A DNA stretch of 12,271 bases from Planctomycetota bacterium. Lineage in GTDB: Bacteria > Planctomycetota > Planctomycetia > Pirellulales > Lacipirellulaceae. This document shows, piece by piece, positions 1-12,271 of this stretch. Both the position numbers and the translations under genes were made by a program. The notes under the pieces are model-generated. The model did not search any database and had not been told where the DNA came from. It saw only the letters and a list, made by a program, of their open reading frames with translations. Within the stretch, counting starts at the first letter, position 1. Each line of letters starts with the position of its first letter. The stretch is taken from positions 1 through 12,271 of the forward strand of contig JBCCXZ010000092.1 of assembly GCA_039190745.1 (NCBI GenBank), written 5' to 3'.

Positions 1-1914
1 CGGTCTGGAGAGCGGCCGGGCCGTCGTCGGTGTTGAAGTTGGTGTCCCGCCCAGGATGATGTTGCCGGAGGCCTCTTCGATGAGGCTGGTGTCGACGGCG
101 AACTCTCTGAACGTGTTGTACCAGAGCAGGTTGCGTTTGTAGCCGCCCGGCCCGGTGGCGGTGGCGCCGCGCTGGACCGTTCCGACCACCTCGCGGAAGA
201 GCGGCTGCTGCATCGCGGAGGCTGCGAGGACTGCGAGGTCGGCGGCGCTAGCCAGATGGCCCTCTGCGGTCAGGCCGCTCGTGTTCTTGAAGCCGGAGGA
301 GTCCATGCCGAGTTCTTTCGCCTTGGCGTTCATCGCGGAAATGAACTGAGCGTAAGCGTCGCCCTCGGCATTGGGCGCGAGGCGGGGGCCGAAGTGCTCG
401 CCCAAAGCGACCGAAGCGTCGTTGCCCGAGGGGAGCAGGAGGCCGTAGAGCAGCTCGCCGACGAGAATCTTCTCGCCGGCTTTGACCCCTGAGGTCGAAC
501 CGATCGTGTTGTCGGCACGCTCGGAGAAGGTGACGAGCTCGTCGAGAATCTCCGGCTTCTCTTGGGCCAGCGTGGTCACGAGGTAGCCGGTCATAATTTT
601 GGTCGTGCTGGCGAAGTGGCGGGGCTCTTCGGCGTTCATGCCCCAGAGGAGTTCGCCCGATTCGCCGTCGGTGACCGCCCAGGCTTTGCAGGTGACGAAA
701 GGCTGGCCGGTGAGCGGCTCGACGGGGGCCTTCTCGATGGCCTGGCTGTTTACCTCCGCGGGCGATGGGATTTTTTCCTCTTGGGTGATGAGCGCGCCGA
801 GGGCCGCCCAGGTCTCGGGCGTGACTGTGCCGCTGGCGGCGAGCTTCTTCGCCCGTTGGAAGCGGACGACCGCCGCCTCGGTCATCGGGCCGAAGTCTCC
901 GTCGACCGAAAGCGACGGCGAGGGGTCCAGCCGTTCGTTGAGCGTGCGCTGCAGTGCCTCGACCAGATCGCCTTGAGCGCCGAGTGCGAGCGCGGCGGGT
1001 CGCTTCGCGTCCGCGGTTTTGGGTTTGGGGGCGTAGAAGTAGTCGTAAGCCGCCTTGGCGATGCGGCCGCAAAGGATTTCAGCGGCATTCTCGTCGCCCC
1101 AGCTCTGGTCTTTGTTGCCCGTGGTGAGCACGCAGATGGCGAACGCTCCGCCGCGGCGTTCGACGATGGCGGCGTCGCATCGGGTGGCCGCCACGGCGCC
1201 GATCTTGTTGGCGACCTTGGCGGTCGGCGGTAGGAACCGGGGGATCATCTGATCGTCCACGCAGGCAAGCATGTGCTCGCGCATCTCGGCCGAAGCCGCC
1301 TCGGAGACGAGTTTGCCTTCGTGCAGCATGGCGAGCAGCTTGATTGTCTCGGCGGCGGTGACGCTGCCGAGGCCGTACTTCTTGCTGCGTTCAGGGAACA
1401 CCGACGTGCCGGGGCGGAACACGAGCGAGTGGAGTTTCGTCTCGGTGAGCCCCATCGACTCCATCAGGTCGCTCGGGCGGCGGAGGCCGACCTTCTCGAT
1501 GACGAGGTTTGTGGCCGTGTTGTCGGAGTAGGCAATCATCAAGCGGATGAGCCCGCGGAGGGGCAGTTCGGTGCCGTCGAAAAACTGCTTCGTAAGGATG
1601 CCGGCGCCGGGGACCTTGTCCTCTTTGTCGAGCGTTACGCTCTGGCCGAGGTCGAGCTCACCGTCTGCCGCCATCTGGTAAGCGGCAACCATGACTGGGA
1701 TTTTGGCGAGGCTTGCGGCGGGCATCGGCTCGTCGGCCCGGTGTTGGTAACGCTCGCCGGTTTCCAGGTTGAGGATGTCGATGGCCACCTCGCCTTGGTG
1801 GGCCTTGATCAGCGGCTCAATAAGCTCCCCAAGTCCCGACTCTTCTGCCACCGTACAGGAGGCCGTAACACACACGATGATCGCGGCGAAGGCAATGCAG
1901 CGAGGGGAGTGCAT
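1..1914 (-). CDS. Secreted tandem serine hydrolase: class A beta-lactamase-like domain + PG_binding_1 + peptidase S11 D-Ala-D-Ala carboxypeptidase (3'-incomplete; homology stops near 112)
   Basis: Manual translation from ATG 1914 (MHSPRCIAFAAIIVCVTASCTVAEES, signal-peptide-like), open to position 1. Domain 1: SLAK (SxxK, 1702-1713), SDN (1519-1527), KIG (1198-1206). PG-binding: LGAQGDLVEALQRTLN...VDGDFGPMTEAAVVRFQ...GTVTPETWAAL (799-990). S11: FASTTKIMT (SxxK 598-609), PSGNDA (SxN 421-429), FKNTSGL, ...WYNT. Confidence 0.9.
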   Translation of the reverse strand, partial: MHSPRCIAFAAIIVCVTASCTVAEESGLGELIEPLIKAHQGEVAIDILNLETGERYQHRADEPMPAASLAKIPVMVAAYQMAADGELDLGQSVTLDKEDKVPGAGILTKQFFDGTELPLRGLIRLMIAYSDNTATNLVIEKVGLRRPSDLMESMGLTETKLHSLVFRPGTSVFPERSKKYGLGSVTAAETIKLLAMLHEGKLVSEAASAEMREHMLACVDDQMIPRFLPPTAKVANKIGAVAATRCDAAIVERRGGAFAICVLTTGNKDQSWGDENAAEILCGRIAKAAYDYFYAPKPKTADAKRPAALALGAQGDLVEALQRTLNERLDPSPSLSVDGDFGPMTEAAVVRFQRAKKLAASGTVTPETWAALGALITQEEKIPSPAEVNSQAIEKAPVEPLTGQPFVTCKAWAVTDGESGELLWGMNAEEPRHFASTTKIMTGYLVTTLAQEKPEILDELVTFSERADNTIGSTSGVKAGEKILVGELLYGLLLPSGNDASVALGEHFGPRLAPNAEGDAYAQFISAMNAKAKELGMDSSGFKNTSGLTAEGHLASAADLAVLAASAMQQPLFREVVGTVQRGATATGPGGYKRNLLWYNTFREFAVDTSLIEEASGNIILGGTPTSTPTTARPLSRP

Positions 1915-1937
1915 AGCTTTGTTCCTAGCGGGCGTCG

Positions 1938-2972
1938 TCAGGCGGTCGGATTGGGCTGGGCGGTGAGCGTCACGCCGTTGCCGTTGGTTGCCGGGTAGCT
2001 GCAGACGCCGCGGTCGACGCGGGCCCCCTCGGCGATGTCTTGGGCGAGCAGCGCGGGGCCGTCCATGTCGACGTAGTCCAACAGCGGCAGCAGCTGGGCG
2101 ATTGCGGAGATGCCGACGGTCGATTCGGTCATGCAGCCGACCATCACCTGCAAGCCAAAGCTGCGGGCTTGGTCGATCATCCGCCGCGCGGGCGTCAATC
2201 CGCCGCACTTCATCAGTTTGATGTTGATGCCGTGGAACAGCCCCCGGCAACGGGCGACGTCGGCCTCGGTGATGCAACTCTCGTCGGCGATCACCGGCAG
2301 GGCCGACTGCTCGAAAACCTTGGCGGCACCGTCGCGGTCGGCCGCGGGGAGCGGCTGCTCAAGGAATTCGACGCCCAATTCTTTGAGCGGCGTGGAGAGC
2401 TCGATCGCCTGGTCGGCGGTCCACCCGCAGTTGGCGTCGATGCGGAAGCGGGCGTCGGTGTGCTTGCGGAGCTCGCGGACGATCTCCAAGTCGCGGTCGG
2501 TGCCGAGCTTGATCTTGTAGACGGGCCAGCCCGGCATCTCGTTGAGCTTCTCGACCATGACTTCGACCGAGTCGATGCCAATGGTGTAGTTGGACGGCGG
2601 CGTCGAGGCGGTGTCGAGGCCCCAAAGTTGGTAGACCGGGGCGCCCTGCTGCTTGCCCCAGAGGTCGTGAGCGGCTTCGTCCAACGCGCACAGCGCGAAG
2701 GGGCAGTCGGAGAGTTGCGGGGCGACCGCTTCCCAGAGCGTGGGCGGGTCAAGCGTCGCCGTCGACTCGACCACGCCGCGGACCGAGTCGAGCGCTGCCT
2801 CCATGCGGTCGTAGGTCATCTCGTAGTACGTGTTGGTGGTCGCCTCTCCGAAGCCGGAGTGGGCGCCGTCGCTGAGCTCGACGACCAGGGTGGGCTGCAC
2901 GTCGACCGAGGACCGCGAGATCGTGAAGGTGTGCTTCAGCGGCAGCTCGAATCGGTGCGTGGCCAGCTTCAC
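1938..2972 (-). CDS. Dipeptide epimerase, enolase superfamily MLE subgroup (L-Ala-D/L-Glu epimerase / DgcA-like N-acetyl-D-Glu racemase)
   Basis: 344 aa, GTG start. N-terminal PLKHTFTISR, catalytic KxK (YKIKLG), metal ligands DAN / EQP / ADES, second Lys (NIKLMKCGG), and the DxD motif (DMDG) typical of dipeptide epimerases. Confidence 0.92.
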   Translation of the reverse strand: MKLATHRFELPLKHTFTISRSSVDVQPTLVVELSDGAHSGFGEATTNTYYEMTYDRMEAALDSVRGVVESTATLDPPTLWEAVAPQLSDCPFALCALDEAAHDLWGKQQGAPVYQLWGLDTASTPPSNYTIGIDSVEVMVEKLNEMPGWPVYKIKLGTDRDLEIVRELRKHTDARFRIDANCGWTADQAIELSTPLKELGVEFLEQPLPAADRDGAAKVFEQSALPVIADESCITEADVARCRGLFHGINIKLMKCGGLTPARRMIDQARSFGLQVMVGCMTESTVGISAIAQLLPLLDYVDMDGPALLAQDIAEGARVDRGVCSYPATNGNGVTLTAQPNPTA

Positions 2973-3011
2973 GGCGCGACTACTCTTGGGTTCTCAAAAA
3001 GCGGAGAGCGA

Positions 3012-4079
3012 TCAAGTCGCGACCGCTTGCGGGCGGAACTTCTCAACGGCCGCGACCAAGTCGGCGGGGCCGTCGCGGACGACGTCGCACACCGGCAGGC
3101 CGAGCTGCTCGCCGATGCGGGCCCGCTCGTCTTCGGCCTCGGCGGCGGAGACCTTGCGGCTGTTCATGGCGACGCCGATCACGCTGCAGGGGCCTTGCAG
3201 GCTCGCCATGTGCTCGTAGGTCTTCAGCAGCTCGTCGAGCGGCTTGAGCCCGAAGCCGGGCATGCCGTGGACTTCGGTGCGGCCCACTTCGTAGCAGAGG
3301 ACCAACGCATGTGGCACGCAGCCGTGCAGGATGCCGAGCGTGACGGCCGAGTAGCGGGGGTGGGAGATGCTGCCCTGCCCTTCGACCACGACGATCTCGC
3401 GGTGCTGGTTGGCGAGGACCTGCTTCTCGACGGCGCCGCTGATGAAGTCGGCCACGACGCAGTCGACCGGGCAGCCGTCGCCCTCGACCATAATGCCGGT
3501 CTGTCCGGTAGCGATGAACTTGGCGTCCCGCCCGGCGGCGTTGAGCGCGATGGTGAGCTCCATGGCCACGAGCATCTTACCTACGCTGCAGTCCTGCCCG
3601 ACCGTGTGCAGGCGGAGGCAGTCTTCGCGGAGACCGGTGCGGTTGGCGACCTCGTGCTCGTCGTTCTTGCGGACGTCGATGAGCTTCGCCCCGCTCTGCT
3701 CGGCGGCCCGGGCGAACTCGGCGTCGTCGCAGAGGAACTGGTGCATGCCGGAGATGACGTCCATGCCGGAGCGGATCGCTTGCAGGAGCACCGGCCGCCA
3801 GGAGTCGGGGAAGCGTCCGCCGGCCGAGGCGATGCCGATCATCAGCGTGTTCGCGTCGGGGGCGTCGTCGAGCTTGCCCACCACGGGGGTGTCGCCGCCG
3901 ACGCCGAGGAGGTCTTGAGCCGTTTTGCCGACCTGCGTGGAGTCGAGCAGCGAGACCACTTCTTCCGGGCGGTAACGCAGCAGGCAGGTGGCGGTCTTGC
4001 CGCGGACCGGCTCGGTGTGGCCCTCGGTGAGGATCGCGAGGCGGCGGCCCGCGGGTTCGATCGGCTGTTGCGGACTCAT
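3012..4079 (-). CDS. DUF1611 protein (DgcN-like putative D-glutamate N-acetyltransferase)
   Basis: Family motifs GKTATCLLRY, ISGMHQFL, TVGQDCSVGKM, ATGQTG, DCVVADFISGAVE, VEGQGSISHPRYS. Start placed at the MSPQQ ATG (4079); the 49 aa upstream in the ORF track (to 4226) are Pro/Ala-rich and lack family character. Confidence 0.88.
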   Translation of the reverse strand: MSPQQPIEPAGRRLAILTEGHTEPVRGKTATCLLRYRPEEVVSLLDSTQVGKTAQDLLGVGGDTPVVGKLDDAPDANTLMIGIASAGGRFPDSWRPVLLQAIRSGMDVISGMHQFLCDDAEFARAAEQSGAKLIDVRKNDEHEVANRTGLREDCLRLHTVGQDCSVGKMLVAMELTIALNAAGRDAKFIATGQTGIMVEGDGCPVDCVVADFISGAVEKQVLANQHREIVVVEGQGSISHPRYSAVTLGILHGCVPHALVLCYEVGRTEVHGMPGFGLKPLDELLKTYEHMASLQGPCSVIGVAMNSRKVSAAEAEDERARIGEQLGLPVCDVVRDGPADLVAAVEKFRPQAVAT

Positions 4080-4248
4080 CCGGCGTTTCTCGGTCGGTTG
4101 GCGGGGGCGGGTCGGGCCCGCTGCAGCGTCTGAGTTTAGTAGCTGCCCCTTGGCGGGAGAAGCGCCGGGCGGCTGCGTTTTCGAGCATGCAGCCGGGGGC
4201 ACGCCGGGCTCATCCGATTCGCGCATCGCCCGTGCGAAGTAGCGCAGC

Positions 4249-5940
4249 CTAAGAGGCGGTCGATGAGGCTCGCCGCCGGAGCCCTGCCGCCAGGCTTGCG
4301 AAGGCTAGCCAAGCCGCGGAGGGTTCGGGCACGCTGATCGTTGCCGGTAGTGCTCCGCTGTAAGACCTTTGGAGCAACAGGAGGTCCGCAAGGTCGACGT
4401 CACCGTCACGGTCGCCGTCACCGTGCGTGAGGTATGCCCCTCCGCCTTCAAAGCTGCCGGCATTGGTCTGCCACGTAATGAGATCGTTCTCATCGACGTC
4501 GCCGTCGCCATCGAAGTCTGCCGTGGGGTCGCCCACCGGTCGGCGGTCGACGAGTAGCTCGACCTCTAAGGCCCCGGGCACGTCGAGGACGAACGAGCCG
4601 GCGGTTAACGCGGTGCGGCCCAGTTCTTCCCAGTAGGTGCCGGTGCGTGCGACGATGCGGTAGTGCCCGGGATCGCTCACCGAGACCTGCCAGTCGTCGC
4701 CGCCGACGTTCGAAGCCACCTCGGGCAGCGGGCGGTGGCCTGCGCCGAAGTTGGGGTTCGCCGCGGGGCCCTGCCCCGCCACGTCGTAGAAGCTCGTGAG
4801 CTGCGTCGGGTAGTCGTCGATCACCGCCTTGCTGTAGAAGATGCTGTGCCCGGCGGCGCCTTGAGACCGCGACTCCACGATCATCTGCTGGAGGTCGCTC
4901 ACCGGCGTGTTCGCGCCCGTGCCGTTGCTGCGGAGACCGACGACGACTTGGTCGAGGTCGTTTGGCTCGAACGGATCGATCTGGGCGTCGATGATCGAGT
5001 CGAACGCCGAGAAACTCGAACGGTAGGCCTGCGGCACGAACTCGTCGAACAACCCCTGCTGCTGCCACTCGGGCCAGTCGGCGTTGAAGTTGCTCTGGGA
5101 GAACCCGGTGATCGACGGGCTCACCGAGACGTGCAGGTCGGGCCGGGCCGCCTTAACGGCTTGGTAGAGCTCCGTGGCGAACAGGGTCACTTGGTCCTGG
5201 CGCCATTGGGCGAAGGCGGGGTCGCTCACGCTGGTCGGCGCGGGGTTGCCCGTCTGGTTCTGGTAGAGCGACTGGGTGAGCGGGTCCCAACCGAATTCTC
5301 GCGGCCAGGCCAGGCGGTCGTCGAACTGGATGCCGTCCAGGTCGTAGTTGTTGACCGCCTCGAGGGTGAGGTCGATCAAGAACTGTCGCACCTGCGGCAC
5401 GGCCGGGTTCATCCAGGCGAACCCGTTCGAGGCGTTGGTGAACTGTTGATTCTGATCTCGCAGCAGCCAGCCGCGATTGCGCATGAAGAGCGAGAGCGGG
5501 TTGTTGGGGTCCCCGCCGTTGCCGACGAATTGCGACGAGAAACCGTACTCCCACCAGCCGATGTAGTTCAGCCCGTTGCGGTGGGCTTGGATCAGCGTTT
5601 CTTCGACCAGATCGCGGTTGAAGCCGAGGAACGGCGAGCGGTCGACGCCCTGGGTGGTCGCGGCGAGGGTTTGCGACGGGTAGTTCGTGTAGCCGTTCTT
5701 CCACGTCTCGACGTAGACGGTGTTTAGTCCGACGCCTTTGACCGCGGCCATCGAGGCCTCGGCGACGTTGCCGGTGCGGATGTGGTTCGGGCCGGTGGTC
5801 GTGAGCCAGGTGCCGCGGACCTCGTCCGGCGCAGCCGCGGCGTCTGCCGGGCAAGCGGTCAGCAGGCACAGGGCGAGCGTCGCCAAACCTGCCCGCATCG
5901 CAGTGAGAAGCCGAGCCTCAACCCGTACCGGTCCCGTCAT
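4249..5940 (-). CDS. GHL10 (glycosyl hydrolase-like 10) protein with signal peptide, dockerin-like repeats and PEP-CTERM sorting signal
   Basis: EVRGTWLTT, LNTVYVETW, IGWWEYG, WMNPAVPQVRQFL...YDLDGIQFDD, FVPQAY. C-terminal ADFDGDGDVDENDL..WQ and GDGDRDGDVDLADL..LQ (4360-4521), then VPEPSAAWLAFASLAAGLRRR. SD-like AGAGG 5 nt before ATG. Confidence 0.88.
   Translation of the reverse strand: MTGPVRVEARLLTAMRAGLATLALCLLTACPADAAAAPDEVRGTWLTTTGPNHIRTGNVAEASMAAVKGVGLNTVYVETWKNGYTNYPSQTLAATTQGVDRSPFLGFNRDLVEETLIQAHRNGLNYIGWWEYGFSSQFVGNGGDPNNPLSLFMRNRGWLLRDQNQQFTNASNGFAWMNPAVPQVRQFLIDLTLEAVNNYDLDGIQFDDRLAWPREFGWDPLTQSLYQNQTGNPAPTSVSDPAFAQWRQDQVTLFATELYQAVKAARPDLHVSVSPSITGFSQSNFNADWPEWQQQGLFDEFVPQAYRSSFSAFDSIIDAQIDPFEPNDLDQVVVGLRSNGTGANTPVSDLQQMIVESRSQGAAGHSIFYSKAVIDDYPTQLTSFYDVAGQGPAANPNFGAGHRPLPEVASNVGGDDWQVSVSDPGHYRIVARTGTYWEELGRTALTAGSFVLDVPGALEVELLVDRRPVGDPTADFDGDGDVDENDLITWQTNAGSFEGGGAYLTHGDGDRDGDVDLADLLLLQRSYSGALPATISVPEPSAAWLAFASLAAGLRRRASSTAS
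4252..4332 (-). other. PEP-CTERM protein-sorting signal
   Basis: VPEP at 4321-4332, followed by a hydrophobic stretch and RRR near the C-terminus. Confidence 0.85.
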
Positions 5941-5987
5941 TTCCGCCTCTCTCGATTGCAGAGAATCAGCTCTCGTTCCTAAGAGCC

Positions 5988-6016
5988 AGTTTAAGCGACC
6001 CGAAGGAGTGCGTCAC
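5988..6016 (-). promoter_or_regulatory. Possible internal promoter GTGACG-N17-TAAACT upstream of the GHL10-PEP-CTERM gene
   Basis: Hexamers at 6016-6011 and 5993-5988 with exact 17-nt spacing; the -10 lies in the 72-bp gap and the -35 overlaps the nagZ stop. Confidence 0.25.
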
Positions 6017-7563
6017 GCCGCGGGCGCACCGTCGAGGATCGCCTGCGCGAGGGCGGCTTGGGAGGCGGGCACGTCGCTAAATGTGCAGAACTTCACGCTC
6101 GCGGCGAAGCGTTCGAGCCCGACAGGCGAGCCGAGGCAAGCGAGCACGGTGCCGGGCCTCTTCTGCAAGGCCTCGACGAGCTGGTTCTGCTCGGGCAGCA
6201 ACCCAAAATGGTGCCATGCTGCGGGCTTGACCACCATGGCGAGCAGCAATTGATCTGCGGACTCGGCGGCTTCTCGGGCGGCCTCAAGGTCGCTCGCGGA
6301 ACTGCTCGGACCGATTTCGTGATACTCGACGCTGCTGAAGCGTGATTCGAGCTCCGCGGCGAGCGGTTGCCGCGGCGGGTCGAGGTGCGTTTGGAACGGT
6401 TTGAAGAACAGGGCACACAAAGGCTTATTTGCTGCGAAACAGGGCCGCGGGTTTTCCGACTCGCATTGGACTGCCCCGACCGCGACTTGTGTGGCGAGCC
6501 TGGCGATGTCCGCATCGATCTCCGCTGCGGGCCGGCCTGCCGGGGCTTGAGCGGCAAAGGTCTTGAGCTTCCACATCCGTTCGACCGCCTCGTCGACCCG
6601 TGCTTCGGCAACGGCGCCCTGCTCGACTGCCCGCTCCAATGCGTCGAGCGTGCCGGATGGGTCCGCGACGTCGAGCAGCAGGTCGACGCCGGCGTTGAGG
6701 GCGCTGACGGCCAAGTCGCCTTCGCTTTCGGCCTGCGAAGTGACTCCTTCCATGAGCAGTGAATCAGAGATGACCGCCCCGTCGAAACCGAGTTCGCCGC
6801 GCAGCAGGTCGGTCAGGATCGCTTGCGACAGCGTCGCCGGCAGGTTGCTGGGGTCCAGCCCGGGGTAGCGGACGTGCGCGGTCATCAGCAGCGGCACGCC
6901 TGCGTCGACAGCAGCCTGGAACGGCGGCAGTTCAACCGAGTCGAGCGACGCCCGGTCGCCGTGGACGGTCGGCAGTGCGTGGTGCGAGTCTTCGTGGGTG
7001 TTGCCGTGGCCGGGGAAGTGTTTGGCGCAGGTGAGCATGCCCGCTTCGGTCGCGGCGCGGACGTAGGCTGCAACAAGCTGCGCGACCCGGACGGGGTCGG
7101 TTCCGAACGAACGGGTCGCGATCACCGGGTTCAGCGGGTCGATGTTCACGTCGGCGACCGGCCCGTAGCTAACGTGGATGCCGACGGAGCGTGCCCCCTC
7201 GGCCGTCAGCCGAGCGAAGTCTTCGACGCGGGCGACGGCGTCGTCGCCCAGCGCGTCGAACGCCATCGCGTGCGGCAGCACCGGGTGGCCGAGCACCTGC
7301 TGGCCGAGGCCCCGTTCGATGTCGGCGGTGACTAGCAGCGGCACGTCGCAGAGCGACTGCAGGCGATCGAGCGTTCTCGCCGTCTCGTCCTTGCGGCCGT
7401 TGAAGAGGATGATCCCGCCCAAGGGGCAGTCTTCCAGCAACCGCGCAATGCGGTCGGCGTCTTGGTCGACGGTGCGGACGGGGTCGAGGTTCGAGCCGAT
7501 CCGCGGCAGGATCAGCTGCGCGAGCTTTGAGCGGAGATCGCTGGGCTTCGACGGCAGCGTCAT
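6013..7563 (-). CDS. nagZ: GH3 beta-N-acetylglucosaminidase (two-domain NagZ)
   Basis: NagZ signature KHFPGHGNTHEDSH, ADIERG, PVADVN..P.NPVIATRSFG, MTAHV, nucleophile in ISDSLLM. About 180-aa C-terminal alpha/beta-like domain; no signal peptide visible. Confidence 0.9.
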   Translation of the reverse strand: MTLPSKPSDLRSKLAQLILPRIGSNLDPVRTVDQDADRIARLLEDCPLGGIILFNGRKDETARTLDRLQSLCDVPLLVTADIERGLGQQVLGHPVLPHAMAFDALGDDAVARVEDFARLTAEGARSVGIHVSYGPVADVNIDPLNPVIATRSFGTDPVRVAQLVAAYVRAATEAGMLTCAKHFPGHGNTHEDSHHALPTVHGDRASLDSVELPPFQAAVDAGVPLLMTAHVRYPGLDPSNLPATLSQAILTDLLRGELGFDGAVISDSLLMEGVTSQAESEGDLAVSALNAGVDLLLDVADPSGTLDALERAVEQGAVAEARVDEAVERMWKLKTFAAQAPAGRPAAEIDADIARLATQVAVGAVQCESENPRPCFAANKPLCALFFKPFQTHLDPPRQPLAAELESRFSSVEYHEIGPSSSASDLEAAREAAESADQLLLAMVVKPAAWHHFGLLPEQNQLVEALQKRPGTVLACLGSPVGLERFAASVKFCTFSDVPASQAALAQAILDGAPAA

Positions 7564-7578
7564 CGATGTGGCCGTTCG

Positions 7579-9471
7579 TTAGGACTCTTCTTCGGTCTTC
7601 TTCCCAAAGGCGGGATCGACCTTCAATAATGCACAGATCGCAAAGCTAGGCAGGGTTGAGATCAGCACCCACTTGAAGAAGTTCTCGTAGCCGATCAGCT
7701 CCTGCAGCCAGCCGCAGAACATGCCGGGGATCATCATGCCGAGGGCCATGAAGCCGGTGCAGATGGCGTAGTGGACGGTTTGGTGTTCGCCCTGCGAGGC
7801 GTAGAGCATGTAGAGCATGTAGGCGGTGAAGCCGAAGCCGTAGCCGAACTGCTCGACGGCCACCGCGAGGTTGACCACAAGCAGGCTCTCGGGCTCAAAA
7901 ATCGAAAGCAGCAGGTATACGCCGTTGGGGAGGTTGATGGCCAGCACCATCCACCAGAGCCAGTGCTTCAGCCCGTTGCGGGCGGCGGCGAGCCCGCCGA
8001 GGATGCCGCCCAGAGTGAGCATCAGCACGCCGACCGTGCCGTAGACGACGCCCACCTCGCCGGTGGTGAGCGCCAAGCCGCCCGCTTCGCGGGTGTCGAG
8101 CAGAAAGGGCGCCGCGAGCTTCACGAGCTGCGCTTCGCTGAACCGGTAAAGCATGAGAAACGCCAGCAGCGTCAACAGGCCCGGCTTGCGGAAGAAGCTG
8201 GCGAGCGGTTCGACCATGCGGCCCAGGAGATCGGCCTTCTCGTGATGGGCCCCGTCGGCGGCGGGCTTGGGCAGCGCGATCAGGTGGTAGGCGGTCGCGA
8301 CGGCGAAGATGCCGGCCAGCAAGTAGAACGTTTGCGACCACGCCCGGGCGAAGTCACCTGAGCGGGCGCTGAAGACCGCCTCGGAAGGCTTGTCGAGCTT
8401 GGGGTCGACCTGGACGACGGCGTAGAACGGCATTGAGCTGTTCTCCGCGGTGACCTCAAACCTTGAGCCTTCTACTAGCTTGAAACTCTTGTCTCCTCCG
8501 GTTTGTTCGAAGGTGACGATTACCGAGTCGCCCTCTTGGACGGGCTGGGCGAGCCGCAGCGGAACGGCGACCAGGTCGCCCGCCACAGCCGTGGACGGCT
8601 CCGGCGGCTCGGCCGGGCCGAACCGCGTCTTGATCCACTCTTCAAGCGAGACCACCCATGCTCGGCGATCCTCTTCGCCCTCTTGTTGGCTAACTTCCTC
8701 GACGGCAATGAATCCGTTGTCTCGATTCCACTGCTTCACGGCCGCGATCAGTTTGTTTGATTCCTGCGGCGGTCGCGTAGTGGTGGACAACGCTGTCGCA
8801 TCAAACGCGGCGACGATCGCCTGCTCGGGTGACCCCTCGGGGGCCGTGTAATCACCGGCCGGATCAAAAGCCAACGCGGCGGGCGGGTTGGCGTCTGCGG
8901 AGAATTGGACCTCTACTTCCGGCAAGCCGCCGGCGACCTCCAGGTAGCCCGCGAGCATCACCAGCAGCCCCTGTCCGGTGATCATCGCCAGCCGGTAGAA
9001 CGTGCTGCGGATGCCGACCCACCAGGCTTGGTCGTGGTCGCCGAGGGCGAGCATGTAGAAGCCGTCGGCCGCGATGTCGTGCGTGGCGGAGCAGAATGCC
9101 ACGATTGAGAGCGTCCAGAGCGTGAGCGTGAGGAAACCCGATGCCGGGATGAAGTAGGCCGTGGCCGCCAGCCCGAGCCCGACGGCGGCCTGCATGGCGA
9201 CGGTCCACCCCCGGCGTGTGCCGACCGCCTCGACGATCGGGCTCCAGAACGGCTTCACCACCCATGGCAGGTAGAGCCAGCTCGTGTACCAGGCGATGTC
9301 GGCGTTCGACACGCCGAGCCGCTTGTACATGATGACCGCCACGGTCATCACCACGACGTACGGAAGCCCCTCGGTGAAGTAGAGGCTGGGGATCCACCGG
9401 GTTTGCCGGGAACGGCCGCCGGCCTCGTTGGTCGCCGCCGGGCCGTTCGCGGAGGATTCGGTAGACTCCAT
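7579..9471 (-). CDS. ampG: AmpG-family MFS muropeptide permease (Bacteroidetes-like type) with large soluble insertion
   Basis: WIPSLYFTEGLPY, LYLPWVVKPFWSPIVE, SATHDIAADGFY, YRFSEAQL, EQFGYGFGFTAY, HYAICTGFMALGMMIPG. About 12 hydrophobic segments, with hydrophilic residues ~181-371 interrupting them. Confidence 0.88.
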   Translation of the reverse strand: MESTESSANGPAATNEAGGRSRQTRWIPSLYFTEGLPYVVVMTVAVIMYKRLGVSNADIAWYTSWLYLPWVVKPFWSPIVEAVGTRRGWTVAMQAAVGLGLAATAYFIPASGFLTLTLWTLSIVAFCSATHDIAADGFYMLALGDHDQAWWVGIRSTFYRLAMITGQGLLVMLAGYLEVAGGLPEVEVQFSADANPPAALAFDPAGDYTAPEGSPEQAIVAAFDATALSTTTRPPQESNKLIAAVKQWNRDNGFIAVEEVSQQEGEEDRRAWVVSLEEWIKTRFGPAEPPEPSTAVAGDLVAVPLRLAQPVQEGDSVIVTFEQTGGDKSFKLVEGSRFEVTAENSSMPFYAVVQVDPKLDKPSEAVFSARSGDFARAWSQTFYLLAGIFAVATAYHLIALPKPAADGAHHEKADLLGRMVEPLASFFRKPGLLTLLAFLMLYRFSEAQLVKLAAPFLLDTREAGGLALTTGEVGVVYGTVGVLMLTLGGILGGLAAARNGLKHWLWWMVLAINLPNGVYLLLSIFEPESLLVVNLAVAVEQFGYGFGFTAYMLYMLYASQGEHQTVHYAICTGFMALGMMIPGMFCGWLQELIGYENFFKWVLISTLPSFAICALLKVDPAFGKKTEEES

Positions 9472-9476
9472 AGCGG

Positions 9477-10988
9477 TTACTCGCTGGCGCCCTTGGTTGT
9501 CTGCAACACCTCGGTGTCGCTCTCTCGGCCGAGGCGGTCGACGGCGGAAACGGCGATCGCGTCGAAGCCTTCAACGGTCATGGACGCCTTCGATCCAGAG
9601 CCCGGCATGACCCCAGGGATCCATTGGCCGTCGCGGCGGAGCTGGACCACCCATTTCCAGGGAGCGACGCCCTCGGGAAGCTTCCAAGACGCCGTCGAAC
9701 TGTTCAGTTCGATCAACGGCTTTGCCGGCGGCTCGCCTTCGATCCAGGTGGTCTCTGGGATCAACGCCGGTTTCTCGTAGGGCCCGTCCACCAGCGTGCC
9801 CGCCACGCCGCCGCCCTTCATGAGCACCTTCATGCTGAAGAACACGTTGCCCGTGGCGCCTTCTTGGTCGCGCGTCGTACCGACCTGCTTGGCTACTTCG
9901 CCGGAGGGCCAGCCATCGGGCCCTTCGCGGTAGACCGCGTTGCCCGGCCAGAGGTGGCGGCCGAGCTTGTTCTCGCCGGCCCACCACTCGAGTAGCACCG
10001 GGAACTCGAGGTTCGGCCGGTCGGATTTCCAGTAGAGCTGAGGGCTCGCGTAGTCGAGCCAGCCCTCGTGCAGCCACTTGCGGGCGTCGGCGTACAGGTT
10101 CGCGTAGGCGTCGAAGCCCTTCACGGTCGGCGGGTGGCCGGGGCGCCAGATGCCGAAGGGGCTGATGCCCACCAGCACCCAAGGCTTGACGGCCTTCACC
10201 TCGCGGTACATCCGCTCGATGAGCCGGTCGACGTTCTGACGCCGCCAGTCGTCGCGGTCGAGTGTTTCGCCGCCAGCCACCGCCCGGGCGTAGCTCTCCG
10301 CGTCCGGGAAAGGCACGGGGTTCCCGTCGTCGTCGTTGATTGGATACGGGTAGAAGTAGTCGTCGATGTGCACGCCGTCGATGTCGTAGCGGTTCACAAC
10401 ATCCATAAATACAGCGATCGAGTGCTCGACCGCGTCCGGCTCGCCGGGGTCGAGCCACAGGTTGGCTCCGTATTCGCGGACCAGATCGGGCCGGGTGCGA
10501 CTGATGTGGTCTTTGGGGAAGTCGCTCTTCCGGGAAGGGTGCCCGGCGCGGTAGGGGTTGAACCAAACGTGCAGGTGCAACCCGCGGTTGTGCGCTTCCT
10601 CGACGATGAACTCGAGCGGGTCGTAGGCGGGCGAGGGCGCCTCACCCATCTTGCCGGTGATGTACTCCGACCACGGCTCTAGGTCTGAGCGGTACAACGC
10701 ATCCGCACACGGCCGGACCTGGAAGACCACCGCGTTGAGGTTCAGCTCGACGCAACGGTCGAGGATCGCGATCACTTGGGCCCGCTGCTGATCGGTGGAG
10801 AGGCCGGGCTTGGAGGGCCAGTCGATGTTGGCGACGGTGGCGACCCAGGCGGCCCGAAACTCTCGCGGCACGGCGGGGGGCTCTGCCGCGGCAGGATCTG
10901 CTGCGGCAGAGGTGGTCGGGCCGAAGCCTGCAAGCAAAGAGAACAGAGAGAAAAACAGGGCTGACTGAGAATATCGTGGGGCTCGCAT
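9477..10988 (-). CDS. Secreted GHL10 glycosyl hydrolase, YddW/DigH-like
   Basis: Signal peptide, REFRAAWVATVANIDWPS, LNAVVFQVRP.ADALY.S..EPWS, HVWFNPYR, WLDPG, YDIDGVHIDDYFYPY, GISPFGIW, LYADARKW..EGWLDY.SPQLYW, and a short C-terminal beta-rich tail (AVSAVDRLGRES). Confidence 0.92.
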   Translation of the reverse strand: MRAPRYSQSALFFSLFSLLAGFGPTTSAAADPAAAEPPAVPREFRAAWVATVANIDWPSKPGLSTDQQRAQVIAILDRCVELNLNAVVFQVRPCADALYRSDLEPWSEYITGKMGEAPSPAYDPLEFIVEEAHNRGLHLHVWFNPYRAGHPSRKSDFPKDHISRTRPDLVREYGANLWLDPGEPDAVEHSIAVFMDVVNRYDIDGVHIDDYFYPYPINDDDGNPVPFPDAESYARAVAGGETLDRDDWRRQNVDRLIERMYREVKAVKPWVLVGISPFGIWRPGHPPTVKGFDAYANLYADARKWLHEGWLDYASPQLYWKSDRPNLEFPVLLEWWAGENKLGRHLWPGNAVYREGPDGWPSGEVAKQVGTTRDQEGATGNVFFSMKVLMKGGGVAGTLVDGPYEKPALIPETTWIEGEPPAKPLIELNSSTASWKLPEGVAPWKWVVQLRRDGQWIPGVMPGSGSKASMTVEGFDAIAVSAVDRLGRESDTEVLQTTKGASE

Positions 10989-10994
10989 CGCACC

Positions 10995-11023
10995 ACTCTA
11001 GAGAGCGCGGCGGCCCCAGGCAA
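10995..11023 (-). promoter_or_regulatory. Putative sigma70-type promoter for the cluster (TTGCCT-N17-TAGAGT), possibly leaderless
   Basis: -35 TTGCCT at 11023-11018, 17-nt spacer, -10 TAGAGT at 11000-10995. The ATG A (10988) is the 7th base after the -10. Confidence 0.45.
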
Positions 11024-11248
11024 CCAGTCCTCGGGCATCCGAAATACCGTCGGGAAACCGACCGGGTTCGTGCGCTGGGGCGACATCCGATTGCGCTGAT
11101 TTTTTGTTGCTGACCATCAAGTGCTCGGGTAGCCTGGGAAAGAGGTACGGGGTGCTTAACTGCCATCGGGCCGGGTATAGCCAGACGGCCTTATCTCCCC
11201 GGCCGGTTCTTGTCGTTCGATCCTACAATCTTGAGATCTGTTTTCTTT

Positions 11249-11256
11249 GGAGGTGA
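11249..11256 (+). promoter_or_regulatory. Strong Shine-Dalgarno (GGAGGTGA) for the divergent gene
   Basis: GGAGGTGA lies 6 nt before ATG 11263. A -10-like TACAAT is at 11224-11229. Confidence 0.75.
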
Positions 11257-11262
11257 GTCCTA

Positions 11263-12271
11263 ATGAAATTGACAACTGTGATCTTCTCCGCGCTCGCGGT
11301 GGCCTTTGCTTGCGCCGCTTCGAGTGCCCAAGCTCAGCTCATTGCGGCCGACAGCTACGTCGGCGGCGTCGGCGACTACACGCAGGGCTTCGGCCAGAGC
11401 TTCACCGGGCAGGGTTCCGCTTCAGCCTTCGGTTTCACGGATCCTTGGGGCGGTTCTACTTCCGGAAACACACACCCTGACATCATCACGCTCGACAACC
11501 CAGCAATCGACTACGAAACCGGCGGCAAGGGCAAGTTCACCCCGAGCACCGCGTTCTCCGACTTCGAGCGCCGCTACGAGCACACGCTCGCCCCGTACGT
11601 AGCGCCGGCGAACGACATTTTCTACATGAGCCACTTGGTCAACACCGGGCCTGAGGCTTCGGGCGGCGACACCGAGGGCTACGCCCTGGTCGGCTTCGGC
11701 AGCTTCGCCGACAAGACCCGCCTGGCCGACGACGCGAACTTCCTCTTCGGCGGTTTCGTAGGCTTCGCCCCAGACGGCAACGGCGACGTCGACCTGGTCA
11801 TCCGCTCGCGCACCGGGCCTGGCGGCGCCGGTCAGGTGACCGACGCGATCCTTCAGGACGCTTCGGCCGGCGACCCGGTCGAGAACCTCACCTTCCACGT
11901 CGTGATGAAGCTGACCTACACCGGCGGCGATAAGATCGATTGGTGGGTCAACCCGACCGACTTCAGCAGCGACGCCGGCATGACCGGCAGCTGCGGCCCC
12001 AACCCCTGTGGCGCCTGCATGGCTGGGTTCACGAACGCTGGTTCCCGCATCCGGCGGGGGCGGGCAGCCGAGCACCGGACAGTCGGCCTCGCTGCGGCCG
12101 CTCTCGCAGGTAAAGACGGGGGCGCCGCAGCCCGTGTTGCAGCACACCTCGCCCCCGCCGCAGCCTCCGCAGGCGTCCCCCTCGCCGGCGTCCCCGTCGC
12201 CGGCGGGCGGGCCGGCATCGAGGGTCGGTGCGCCGGCGTCGGCCACGCCCTCCGGGCGGAGGCACAGACCG
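11263..12271 (+). CDS. Secreted hypothetical protein, probably PEP-CTERM-class surface protein (incomplete; credible only to ~11990)
   Basis: Manual translation MKLTTVIFSALAVAFACAASSAQA-QLIAADSYVGGVGDYTQG...GFTDPWGG...FYMSHLVN...FHVVMKLTYTGGDKIDWWVNPTDFSSDAGMTGS. Clear Sec signal (AQA), strong SD, GC-rich third positions. No stop before the window end, but composition changes after ~11990. Confidence 0.8.
   Translation, partial: MKLTTVIFSALAVAFACAASSAQAQLIAADSYVGGVGDYTQGFGQSFTGQGSASAFGFTDPWGGSTSGNTHPDIITLDNPAIDYETGGKGKFTPSTAFSDFERRYEHTLAPYVAPANDIFYMSHLVNTGPEASGGDTEGYALVGFGSFADKTRLADDANFLFGGFVGFAPDGNGDVDLVIRSRTGPGGAGQVTDAILQDASAGDPVENLTFHVVMKLTYTGGDKIDWWVNPTDFSSDAGMTGSCGPNPCGACMAGFTNAGSRIRRGRAAEHRTVGLAAAALAGKDGGAAARVAAHLAPAAASAGVPLAGVPVAGGRAGIEGRCAGVGHALRAEAQT
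12031..12270 (-). CDS. Fragment of a Cys-rich, DAG-repeat protein (myxobacterial-style), probably from a different genome or locus
   Basis: GLCLRPEGVADAGAPTLDAGPPAGDGDAGEGDACGGCGGGEVCCNTGCGAPVFTCESGRSEADCPVLGCPPPPDAG: four DAG motifs and eight Cys. It overlaps the + strand ORF antisense. Confidence 0.45.

Follow-up and report, generated by a model that had tools for sequence, protein, structure and literature searches.

Part of a predicted peptidoglycan (PG) catabolic gene cluster lies on a 12,271-nucleotide stretch of planctomycete DNA (the window), which is the whole of contig C92 (JBCCXZ010000092.1) in a 3.9-Mb, 95%-complete Lacipirellulaceae genome (GCA_039190745.1; G000). The host belongs to a lineage without detectable canonical PG synthesis, and the cluster probably serves to digest the walls of other bacteria. 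Seven co-oriented open reading frames (ORFs) lie on the minus strand, in the Pfam order GHL10, major facilitator superfamily (MFS), GH3, GHL10, DUF1611, enolase superfamily, and Beta-lactamase2 joined to PG_binding_1 and Peptidase_S11. Their number, orientation and gaps (5, 15, 72, 169, 39 and 23 nt), as given in an initial annotation, were reproduced identically on recomputation. We read the limits of the locus against a same-genus guide genome (G001) and against contigs from run X1, which is possibly the source sample and hence not independent of the assembly. The window contains the following features:

1..112, no strand: foreign (chimeric) contig end, outside the locus; unaligned to G001, with X1 contigs starting at 113.
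~112..1914, minus strand: two-active-site serine peptidase, predicted to be exported, with class-A-beta-lactamase-like, PG_binding_1 and S11 DD-carboxypeptidase domains (Pfam).
1938..2972, minus strand: predicted enolase-superfamily dipeptide epimerase or N-acyl-amino-acid racemase, with catalytic K-x-K, D, E, D and second Lys motifs.
3012..4079, minus strand: DUF1611-family protein, DgcN-like candidate D-amino-acid N-acetyltransferase (PF07755 and PF17396).
4249..5940, minus strand: GHL10b, a divergent GHL10 enzyme with signal peptide, dockerin-like repeats and PEP-CTERM-like tail (PF02638, E = 1e-57).
6013..7563, minus strand: predicted GH3 beta-N-acetylglucosaminidase of NagZ type, no signal peptide (PF00933, E = 1e-75).
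7579..9471, minus strand: AmpG-type MFS permease of a Bacteroidota-like kind (TIGR00901, 174 bits, under the cut-off of 350).
9477..10988, minus strand: GHL10a, a predicted exported GHL10 (DUF187) glycan-cleaving enzyme (PF02638, E = 6e-63).
11263..11991, plus strand: divergently transcribed PEP-CTERM protein, truncated by the chimeric end, with its remainder on contig C43.
11992..12271, no strand: foreign (chimeric) contig end, outside the locus; unaligned to G001 and partly on a separate X1 contig.

The window is the middle of a PG catabolic region of ~45 kb, taking G001 as guide, that extends onto contigs C29 and C43. The G001 alignment spans positions 113–11991 at 84%, with nothing aligned outside that span. 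Two main X1 contigs cover 113–11971, beginning at 113, and a separate X1 contig covers 12067–12221 at a depth of 2.6 versus 9.4. From these alignment limits and contig boundaries, we read both window ends as foreign; C92 is thereby an instance of chimeric contig ends in this assembly. The interrupted end genes resume at the starts of C29 and C43. The serine peptidase loses its C-terminus at ~112, where C92 turns foreign, and the remainder lies on C29. The product of 11263..11991 is 80% identical to a G001 copy that ends in a PEP-CTERM tail, and C43 opens with the missing tail. The seven genes initially placed at 112..10988 are thus real, but the last is truncated at ~112 and the locus is larger than that span.

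AmpG and NagZ are recognised by family and motif. Known AmpG structures match the permease at E = 2e-19, and it is 89% identical to a copy in a Lacipirellulaceae bacterium record with the same gene order. It carries an inserted domain of ~190 aa (residues ~180–370, window 8332–8949) that belongs to no named family and is probably periplasmic. The insertion is present in 12 family-level copies and several from Bacteroidota and Ignavibacteriota, and missing in others; its atlas matches are only unnamed Bacteroidota MFS clusters, and a profile search of the PDB returned nothing below E = 0.25. The NagZ-type protein has the KHFPGHG-x4-D-S-H catalytic loop and the nucleophile Asp. Its best PDB matches are GH3 N-acetylglucosaminidases, including B. 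subtilis NagZ; it scores 161 bits with model PRK05337, under the cut-off of 207, and is probably cytoplasmic.

The DUF1611–epimerase pair would most likely handle D-Glu released from stem peptides, whether the two work as DgcN/DgcA or the epimerase acts on Ala-Glu. The DUF1611 protein scores 273 of 480 bits with NF041892 (DgcN) and matches PDB entries 7XRJ and 2OBN at E ~1e-56. The epimerase scores 227 of 400 bits with DgcA and 142 of 343 bits with L-Ala-D/L-Glu epimerase; its best structure is 3IJI (E = 1e-64), which we take to be a Bacteroides dipeptide epimerase. Both NCBIfam equivalog cut-offs are missed, at ~57% of each, and the DgcN/DgcA identity proposed at first is not upheld.

GHL10a has a signal-peptide-like N-terminus, and its sole match among solved structures is Cwp19, a lytic transglycosylase of C. 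difficile (PDB 5OQ2, E = 1e-78); since DigH lay outside this comparison, the earlier label "DigH-type" is not established. GHL10b, which likely starts at 5898, matches Cwp19 weakly (E = 1e-8). Its PEP-CTERM tail was seen by eye; all 13 of its listed orthologues end in a PEP-like tail, and G000 encodes an exosortase. A third GHL10, without a PEP tail, adjoins transporters on contig C106 of G000 (L133:1673-2788). Within the window, the serine peptidase shows the motif sets SxxK/SDN/KxG and SxxK/SGN. Both SxxK motifs, SDN, SGN and the S11 KTG are kept in 20 of 20 homologues examined, and the first KxG in 19; the S11 DD-carboxypeptidase signature (SxxK, SxN, KTG) is complete, its KTG falling inside the assembly gap and present in all 20 homologues. 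Class A beta-lactamases carry an omega-loop Glu motif, which we compared by eye. This motif is not visible after the SDN of the 112..1914 product, and the model scores 106 of 200 bits, leaving a true class A beta-lactamase unsupported.

The flanking contigs carry further PG-related genes. C43 encodes a second PEP-CTERM protein, a DUF1559 protein, a XylR/AraC regulator, AnmK, a BadF-type kinase, MurQ, a sodium symporter and a serine-hydrolase–NamZ fusion. C29 encodes an NhaC-like transporter, an M19 dipeptidase, a gamma-glutamyltransferase, a Golvesin/fn3 protein, two DUF1559 genes and a NagB–deacetylase fusion. AnmK, MurQ, NagB and the gamma-glutamyltransferase exceed NCBIfam cut-offs, and NamZ exceeds its Pfam cut-off. 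Elsewhere in G000, a GH25 protein is encoded on C42 and an M14–SpmA–SpmB–LD-carboxypeptidase group on C8. The neighbours that the initial annotation named as worth seeking were thus located on C43 (anmK and murQ) and C29 (an amidase), whereas amgK was not recognised. No Mpl or AmgK-like candidate was recognised in G000, in the case of AmgK among the two best of 10 APH matches, which resemble homoserine and methylthioribose kinases. An amidohydrolase on C43, considered as a DgcH-type deacetylase, is formylmethanofuran dehydrogenase subunit A. SpoIID/lytB was not found in G000 itself and is present in relatives' loci.

In the Golvesin/fn3 protein on C29, an inserted domain interrupts an Amidase_3 region, which scores 28.8 bits (the cut-off is 27). 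This large protein, with fn3 and dockerin-like parts, keeps by eye the His, Glu, His, Glu zinc and catalytic residues of the family. Amidase_3 is matched by 10 of 13 homologues, and many database homologues are named amidase or AmiA-like. Seven amidase structures and LytH match it weakly (E = 0.016–0.9), and the best structure for the inserted domain is a xanthan lyase. The C29 gene lies at L130:5284-8577, and the same split by a Golvesin domain is seen at L047:1304-2728.

Comparison with relatives shows that the clustering is not chance. We compared 60 genomes, 36 of the same family and 24 from other Pirellulales families (61 with G000). The AmpG type occurs in 28 of the 36 family relatives and, as a strong match, in one of the 24 others. 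The amidase is present in exactly the same genomes (30/61), and MurQ in the same 28 (one partial) plus 3 of the 24, that is, the AmpG/amidase genomes plus two. Stretches of up to 20 kb around AmpG in those 28 relatives contain GHL10a (27 loci), NagZ (26), the two-site peptidase (17), the epimerase (15), DUF1611 (12) and GHL10b (one). Chance is set aside because GHL10a adjoins AmpG in 27 of 28 loci and NagZ lies in the same stretch in 26. Gene-order conservation, which the initial annotation expected, extends to the adjacent GHL10a–AmpG–NagZ; the full seven-gene order recurs only in G001, and the six-gene order without GHL10b in eight more, one with nagB inserted. GHL10b, the PEP-CTERM hydrolase, lies within the cluster only in this genus and is accessory at this position. 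Its orthologues occur elsewhere in at least 13 of the 36 relatives (a lower bound, as 22 candidates were scored in each genome); one of them adjoins anmK, and another lies ~7 kb from murQ. GH25 enzymes, SpoIID-type enzymes and additional GHL10s are found repeatedly next to the core in relatives' loci.

The AmpG tree fits a single acquisition and gives neither direction nor donor. In this quick tree of 76 rows, which was unrooted and had no outgroup (4 partial rows and one duplicate were omitted), Pirellulales form one group (SH-aLRT 94) with four proteobacterial rows nested within it, next to Bacteroidota and Ignavibacteriota. Two gammaproteobacterial loci whose AmpG nests with the planctomycete ones (L037 and L041) form a parallel PG-utilisation cluster of AmpG, GNAT, two NamZ, LD-carboxypeptidase, a MurQ-like protein and a symporter, with a TonB receptor in L037.

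The host and its family lack detectable canonical PG synthesis. Searches of G000 gave nothing above cut-off for MurA, MraY, penicillin-binding protein (PBP) transpeptidase, FtsW/RodA, GT51, LD-transpeptidase (YkuD), MurI, Ddl, Alr or MreB. Across 37 family genomes, MurA and MraY over cut-off are both at 0/37, no full-length PBP was found beyond one contig-edge fragment, and FtsW/RodA gave two weak hits; the fragment and both weak hits are in genomes without the locus. Run on 130 other planctomycetes, this PBP search is positive in 129, and therefore the method works in the phylum. MurA is kept by 12 of the 24 other Pirellulales; all 12 lack the amidase, MurQ and a strong match to the AmpG type. 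Loss of wall-synthesis genes in Pirellulales is already in print (PMC12283558, PMC12673574). The Mur ligases of G000 come to one MurE-like protein and a weak second match. On C8, remnant MurG-like and MurE-like genes stand side by side with MurB 12 kb away (L128:12241-15311, L129:8511-9566).

A PG catabolic cluster in hosts without the usual wall-making genes most likely feeds on other bacteria's walls. Gene content, motifs, synteny, co-occurrence and undetectable PG synthesis are what we observe; from them we infer each activity, localisation and substrate, and the foreign origin of the substrate. In the proposed route, glycan strands and cross-links would be cut outside the cell by the two GHL10s, the C29 amidase, the PG-binding two-site serine peptidase and the GH25 muramidase encoded elsewhere in G000, joined in relatives by SpoIID-type enzymes. 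AmpG would import disaccharides of N-acetylglucosamine (GlcNAc) and (anhydro-)N-acetylmuramic acid (MurNAc), with the sodium symporter taking up free sugars. NagZ and NamZ would release monomers, AnmK and the BadF-type kinase would phosphorylate them, and MurQ and the NagB–deacetylase fusion would yield fructose-6-phosphate, lactate and ammonia for metabolism. Stem peptides would be split by the gamma-glutamyltransferase, the M19 dipeptidase and the M14 and LD-carboxypeptidases, and D-Glu converted by the epimerase–DUF1611 pair. The locus is repeatedly accompanied by an M14 peptidase, a SpmA/SpmB-like Gate-domain pair and an LD-carboxypeptidase (L093:15112-19045; G000 C8:14166-18123), and a role for SpmA/B in transporting stem peptides is suggested.

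Characterised relatives of these proteins are compatible with such a route. Cwp19 is a lytic transglycosylase that yields anhydro-muropeptides (PMC6016235), and the likeness of GHL10a to it fits the presence of AnmK in the region. The AmpG of T. forsythia was shown to import disaccharides (PMC7670621), and the T. forsythia operon, of similar make-up, was shown to use foreign PG (10.1101/2021.12.02.470905). On balance, we consider it likely, from sequence comparison, that the locus digests foreign PG for carbon and nitrogen. PG catabolism and foreign-wall use, as initially proposed, are supported by the family-wide failure to detect PG synthesis and by the neighbouring anmK, murQ and amidase genes; the surface-sorting argument originally offered is weak, given the many G000 proteins with a similar tail and GHL10b in only one of 28 loci.

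Several observations weigh against foraging. PEP-CTERM-like tails are common in G000 (~125 proteins by regex count), and that of GHL10b has no hidden Markov model match (Pfam or NCBIfam, E 0.01). The AmpG, NagZ, DgcN and DgcA models all score under equivalog cut-offs, and no outer-membrane uptake system was identified for the locus. The AmpG type also occurs, together with PBPs, in 4 of 130 other planctomycetes, and the genomes are kin, which makes the co-occurrence approximately one event and not a statistical test. The characterised GHL10s, Cwp19 and DigH, target the wall of the cell that produces them (PMC6016235, PMC12288456). MurB is retained in G000 with a score over cut-off, alongside MurE-like and MurG-like genes that fall under it. 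Rhodopirellula baltica, another member of the Pirellulales, was found to contain MurNAc, GlcNAc and diaminopimelate (PMC4432640), and therefore gene absence may not mean wall absence, if a wall is made by an unrecognised route.

The last three points favour turnover of the host's own, non-canonically made PG, as in the E. coli AmpG–NagZ–AnmK–MurQ system. By family assignment the same cytoplasmic steps are encoded here, with AnmK and MurQ over cut-off. The locus differs from the E. coli system in having no Mpl, a distant AmpG with an insertion, and clustering with exported hydrolases. Recycling presupposes a host that makes PG, and none of MurA, MraY, PBP or a SEDS polymerase was found; polymerase, cross-linker, MurI, Alr and Ddl are likewise undetected. 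Moreover, the 8 of 36 relatives without the locus show the same synthesis gaps, the 12 MurA-keeping Pirellulales do not have it, and several of the hydrolases bear surface-type tails. We consider own-wall recycling unlikely.

Fragment scavenging is a further alternative. The cells might take up only small soluble muropeptides or GlcNAc oligomers from neighbours, with the exported hydrolases sparing intact walls. The conserved core of AmpG, NagZ, MurQ and AnmK needs nothing larger than fragments, no SusC/D or TonB receptor is present among the proteins scanned in 58 kb around the locus in G001, and GHL10b is only distantly like Cwp19. However, the large fn3/dockerin-like amidase tracks AmpG exactly, GH25, SpoIID-type and additional GHL10 enzymes recur near the core, and a PG-binding domain is fused to the peptidase, making this restriction improbable. 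Chitin is excluded as the sole target by the muramic-acid specificity of MurQ, AnmK and NamZ.

Among known systems, the Tannerella/Bacteroidales PG-salvage operon comes closest, and the locus looks like a catabolic variant of it, carried by a host that lacks detectable canonical PG synthesis. The T. forsythia operon comprises a putative xanthan lyase, gtf, lytB, ampG, namZ1, murT, murK and murQ and salvages foreign PG (10.1101/2021.12.02.470905). The planctomycete locus resembles it in an AmpG of the same broad group, NamZ, MurQ, a BadF-type kinase, a Golvesin-domain protein, SpoIID/LytB in relatives, the presumed use of foreign PG, and no SusC/D in the operon as described. The combination of ampG with namZ, murQ, kinase, lytB and a Golvesin gene is found across the extended region or relatives' loci. 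The planctomycete locus adds GHL10s, NagZ, AnmK, NagB, a peptide and D-amino-acid module, and PEP-CTERM-type tails, and the DUF4922 gene of the Bacteroidales loci is missing from 27 of 28 family loci. Whereas in T. forsythia the sugar builds the cell's own wall, here no wall pathway is evident and the route looks catabolic. Because no downstream wall-synthesis genes were detected, the locus is not a member of the Tannerella operon in purpose.

For the same reason, MurNAc salvage for the host's own wall in the Tannerella style, offsetting the loss of MurA, is highly improbable. MurA is absent family-wide, as in T. forsythia, and the gene sets are similar. Yet the host offers one MurE-like ligase and a weak second match, no MraY or PBP, and no AmgK-like kinase among the two best APH matches, and L. 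parvula grows on plain sugars (PMC6995999).

Other known systems share parts of the locus. The B. subtilis amiE-nagZ-namZ-murQRP operon is alike in NagZ, MurQ, NamZ (here fused to an AmiE-like serine hydrolase) and exo-lytic PG digestion; it differs in phosphotransferase-system uptake and own-wall recycling, whereas the locus encodes AmpG and a sodium symporter. The DgcN–DgcA D-glutamate pathway is alike in its adjacent DUF1611 and enolase-superfamily genes, whose best NCBIfam matches here are DgcN and DgcA, and differs in the low scores and the 3IJI-like epimerase noted above. Cwp19 and E. coli DigH belong to the same catalytic family as the GHL10s, GHL10a being close to Cwp19; they remodel their own wall, and GHL10b is divergent with its PEP-CTERM-like tail. 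The locus is not a polysaccharide utilization locus (PUL) in the SusC/D sense, there being no TonB receptor or SusD match among the scanned proteins of L107, L078 and L108, a subset of all ORFs. The initial description as PUL-like without SusC/D stands to that extent, but the kind is not new, given T. forsythia and B. subtilis.

The amidase may fill a gap in the Tannerella system. The amidase of that system is called unidentified in the operon report (10.1101/2021.12.02.470905). Fetched Bacteroidales loci share the T. forsythia layout, and the Golvesin-domain gene near ampG keeps the amidase residues. The Bacteroidales homologues of the C29 amidase are candidates for the enzyme in question, and Tanf_08345 may be this amidase.

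PG makes up a large share of bacterial necromass, and a complete catabolic route shared across Lacipirellulaceae would, if true, mark an overlooked PG consumer that uses other enzyme families. Surveys of carbohydrate-active enzymes attribute PG breakdown not to Planctomycetia but to organisms bearing GH23-type enzymes (PMC10864421). A literature search by listings, which did not cover Mahajan 2020, Wiegand 2020 (the likeliest earlier accounts) or any supplements, found no description of the locus. Passages of three Lacipirellulaceae species papers (PMC6995999, PMC7717034, PMC13315336) contain no mention of PG catabolism, and those of PMC12363236, PMC10845958, PMC10864421 and PMC13288992 do not describe the locus. 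Where PG-degrading machinery occurs without PG synthesis, foraging can be told apart from recycling, and it becomes testable whether Pirellulales possess any wall. Cultured family members carry at least the amidase, by database names.

A broader scenario can be offered only tentatively. Most Lacipirellulaceae might be free-living bacteria without PG of their own, whose surface GHL10, GH25, SpoIID, amidase and PG-binding peptidase would digest dead, and possibly living, neighbours; having no wall substrate, they would be spared self-lysis. DUF1559 proteins and the AmpG insertion could then replace SusC/D-type capture. The role of DUF1559 in uptake is our assumption, and the literature search did not find it.

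Minor features surround the locus. Scans for promoters and terminators gave no more than chance would or were uninformative. The minus strand of 11992–12271 encodes a Cys/Gly/Asp-rich low-complexity stretch, presumably reminiscent of myxobacterial proteins. A ~75-nt palindromic element, resembling repetitive extragenic palindromic sequences, lies on C29 (L130:198-270) and has dozens of copies genome-wide. At the nagB end of the region, selA, selB and a selD-like fusion adjoin (L107:1492-7357).

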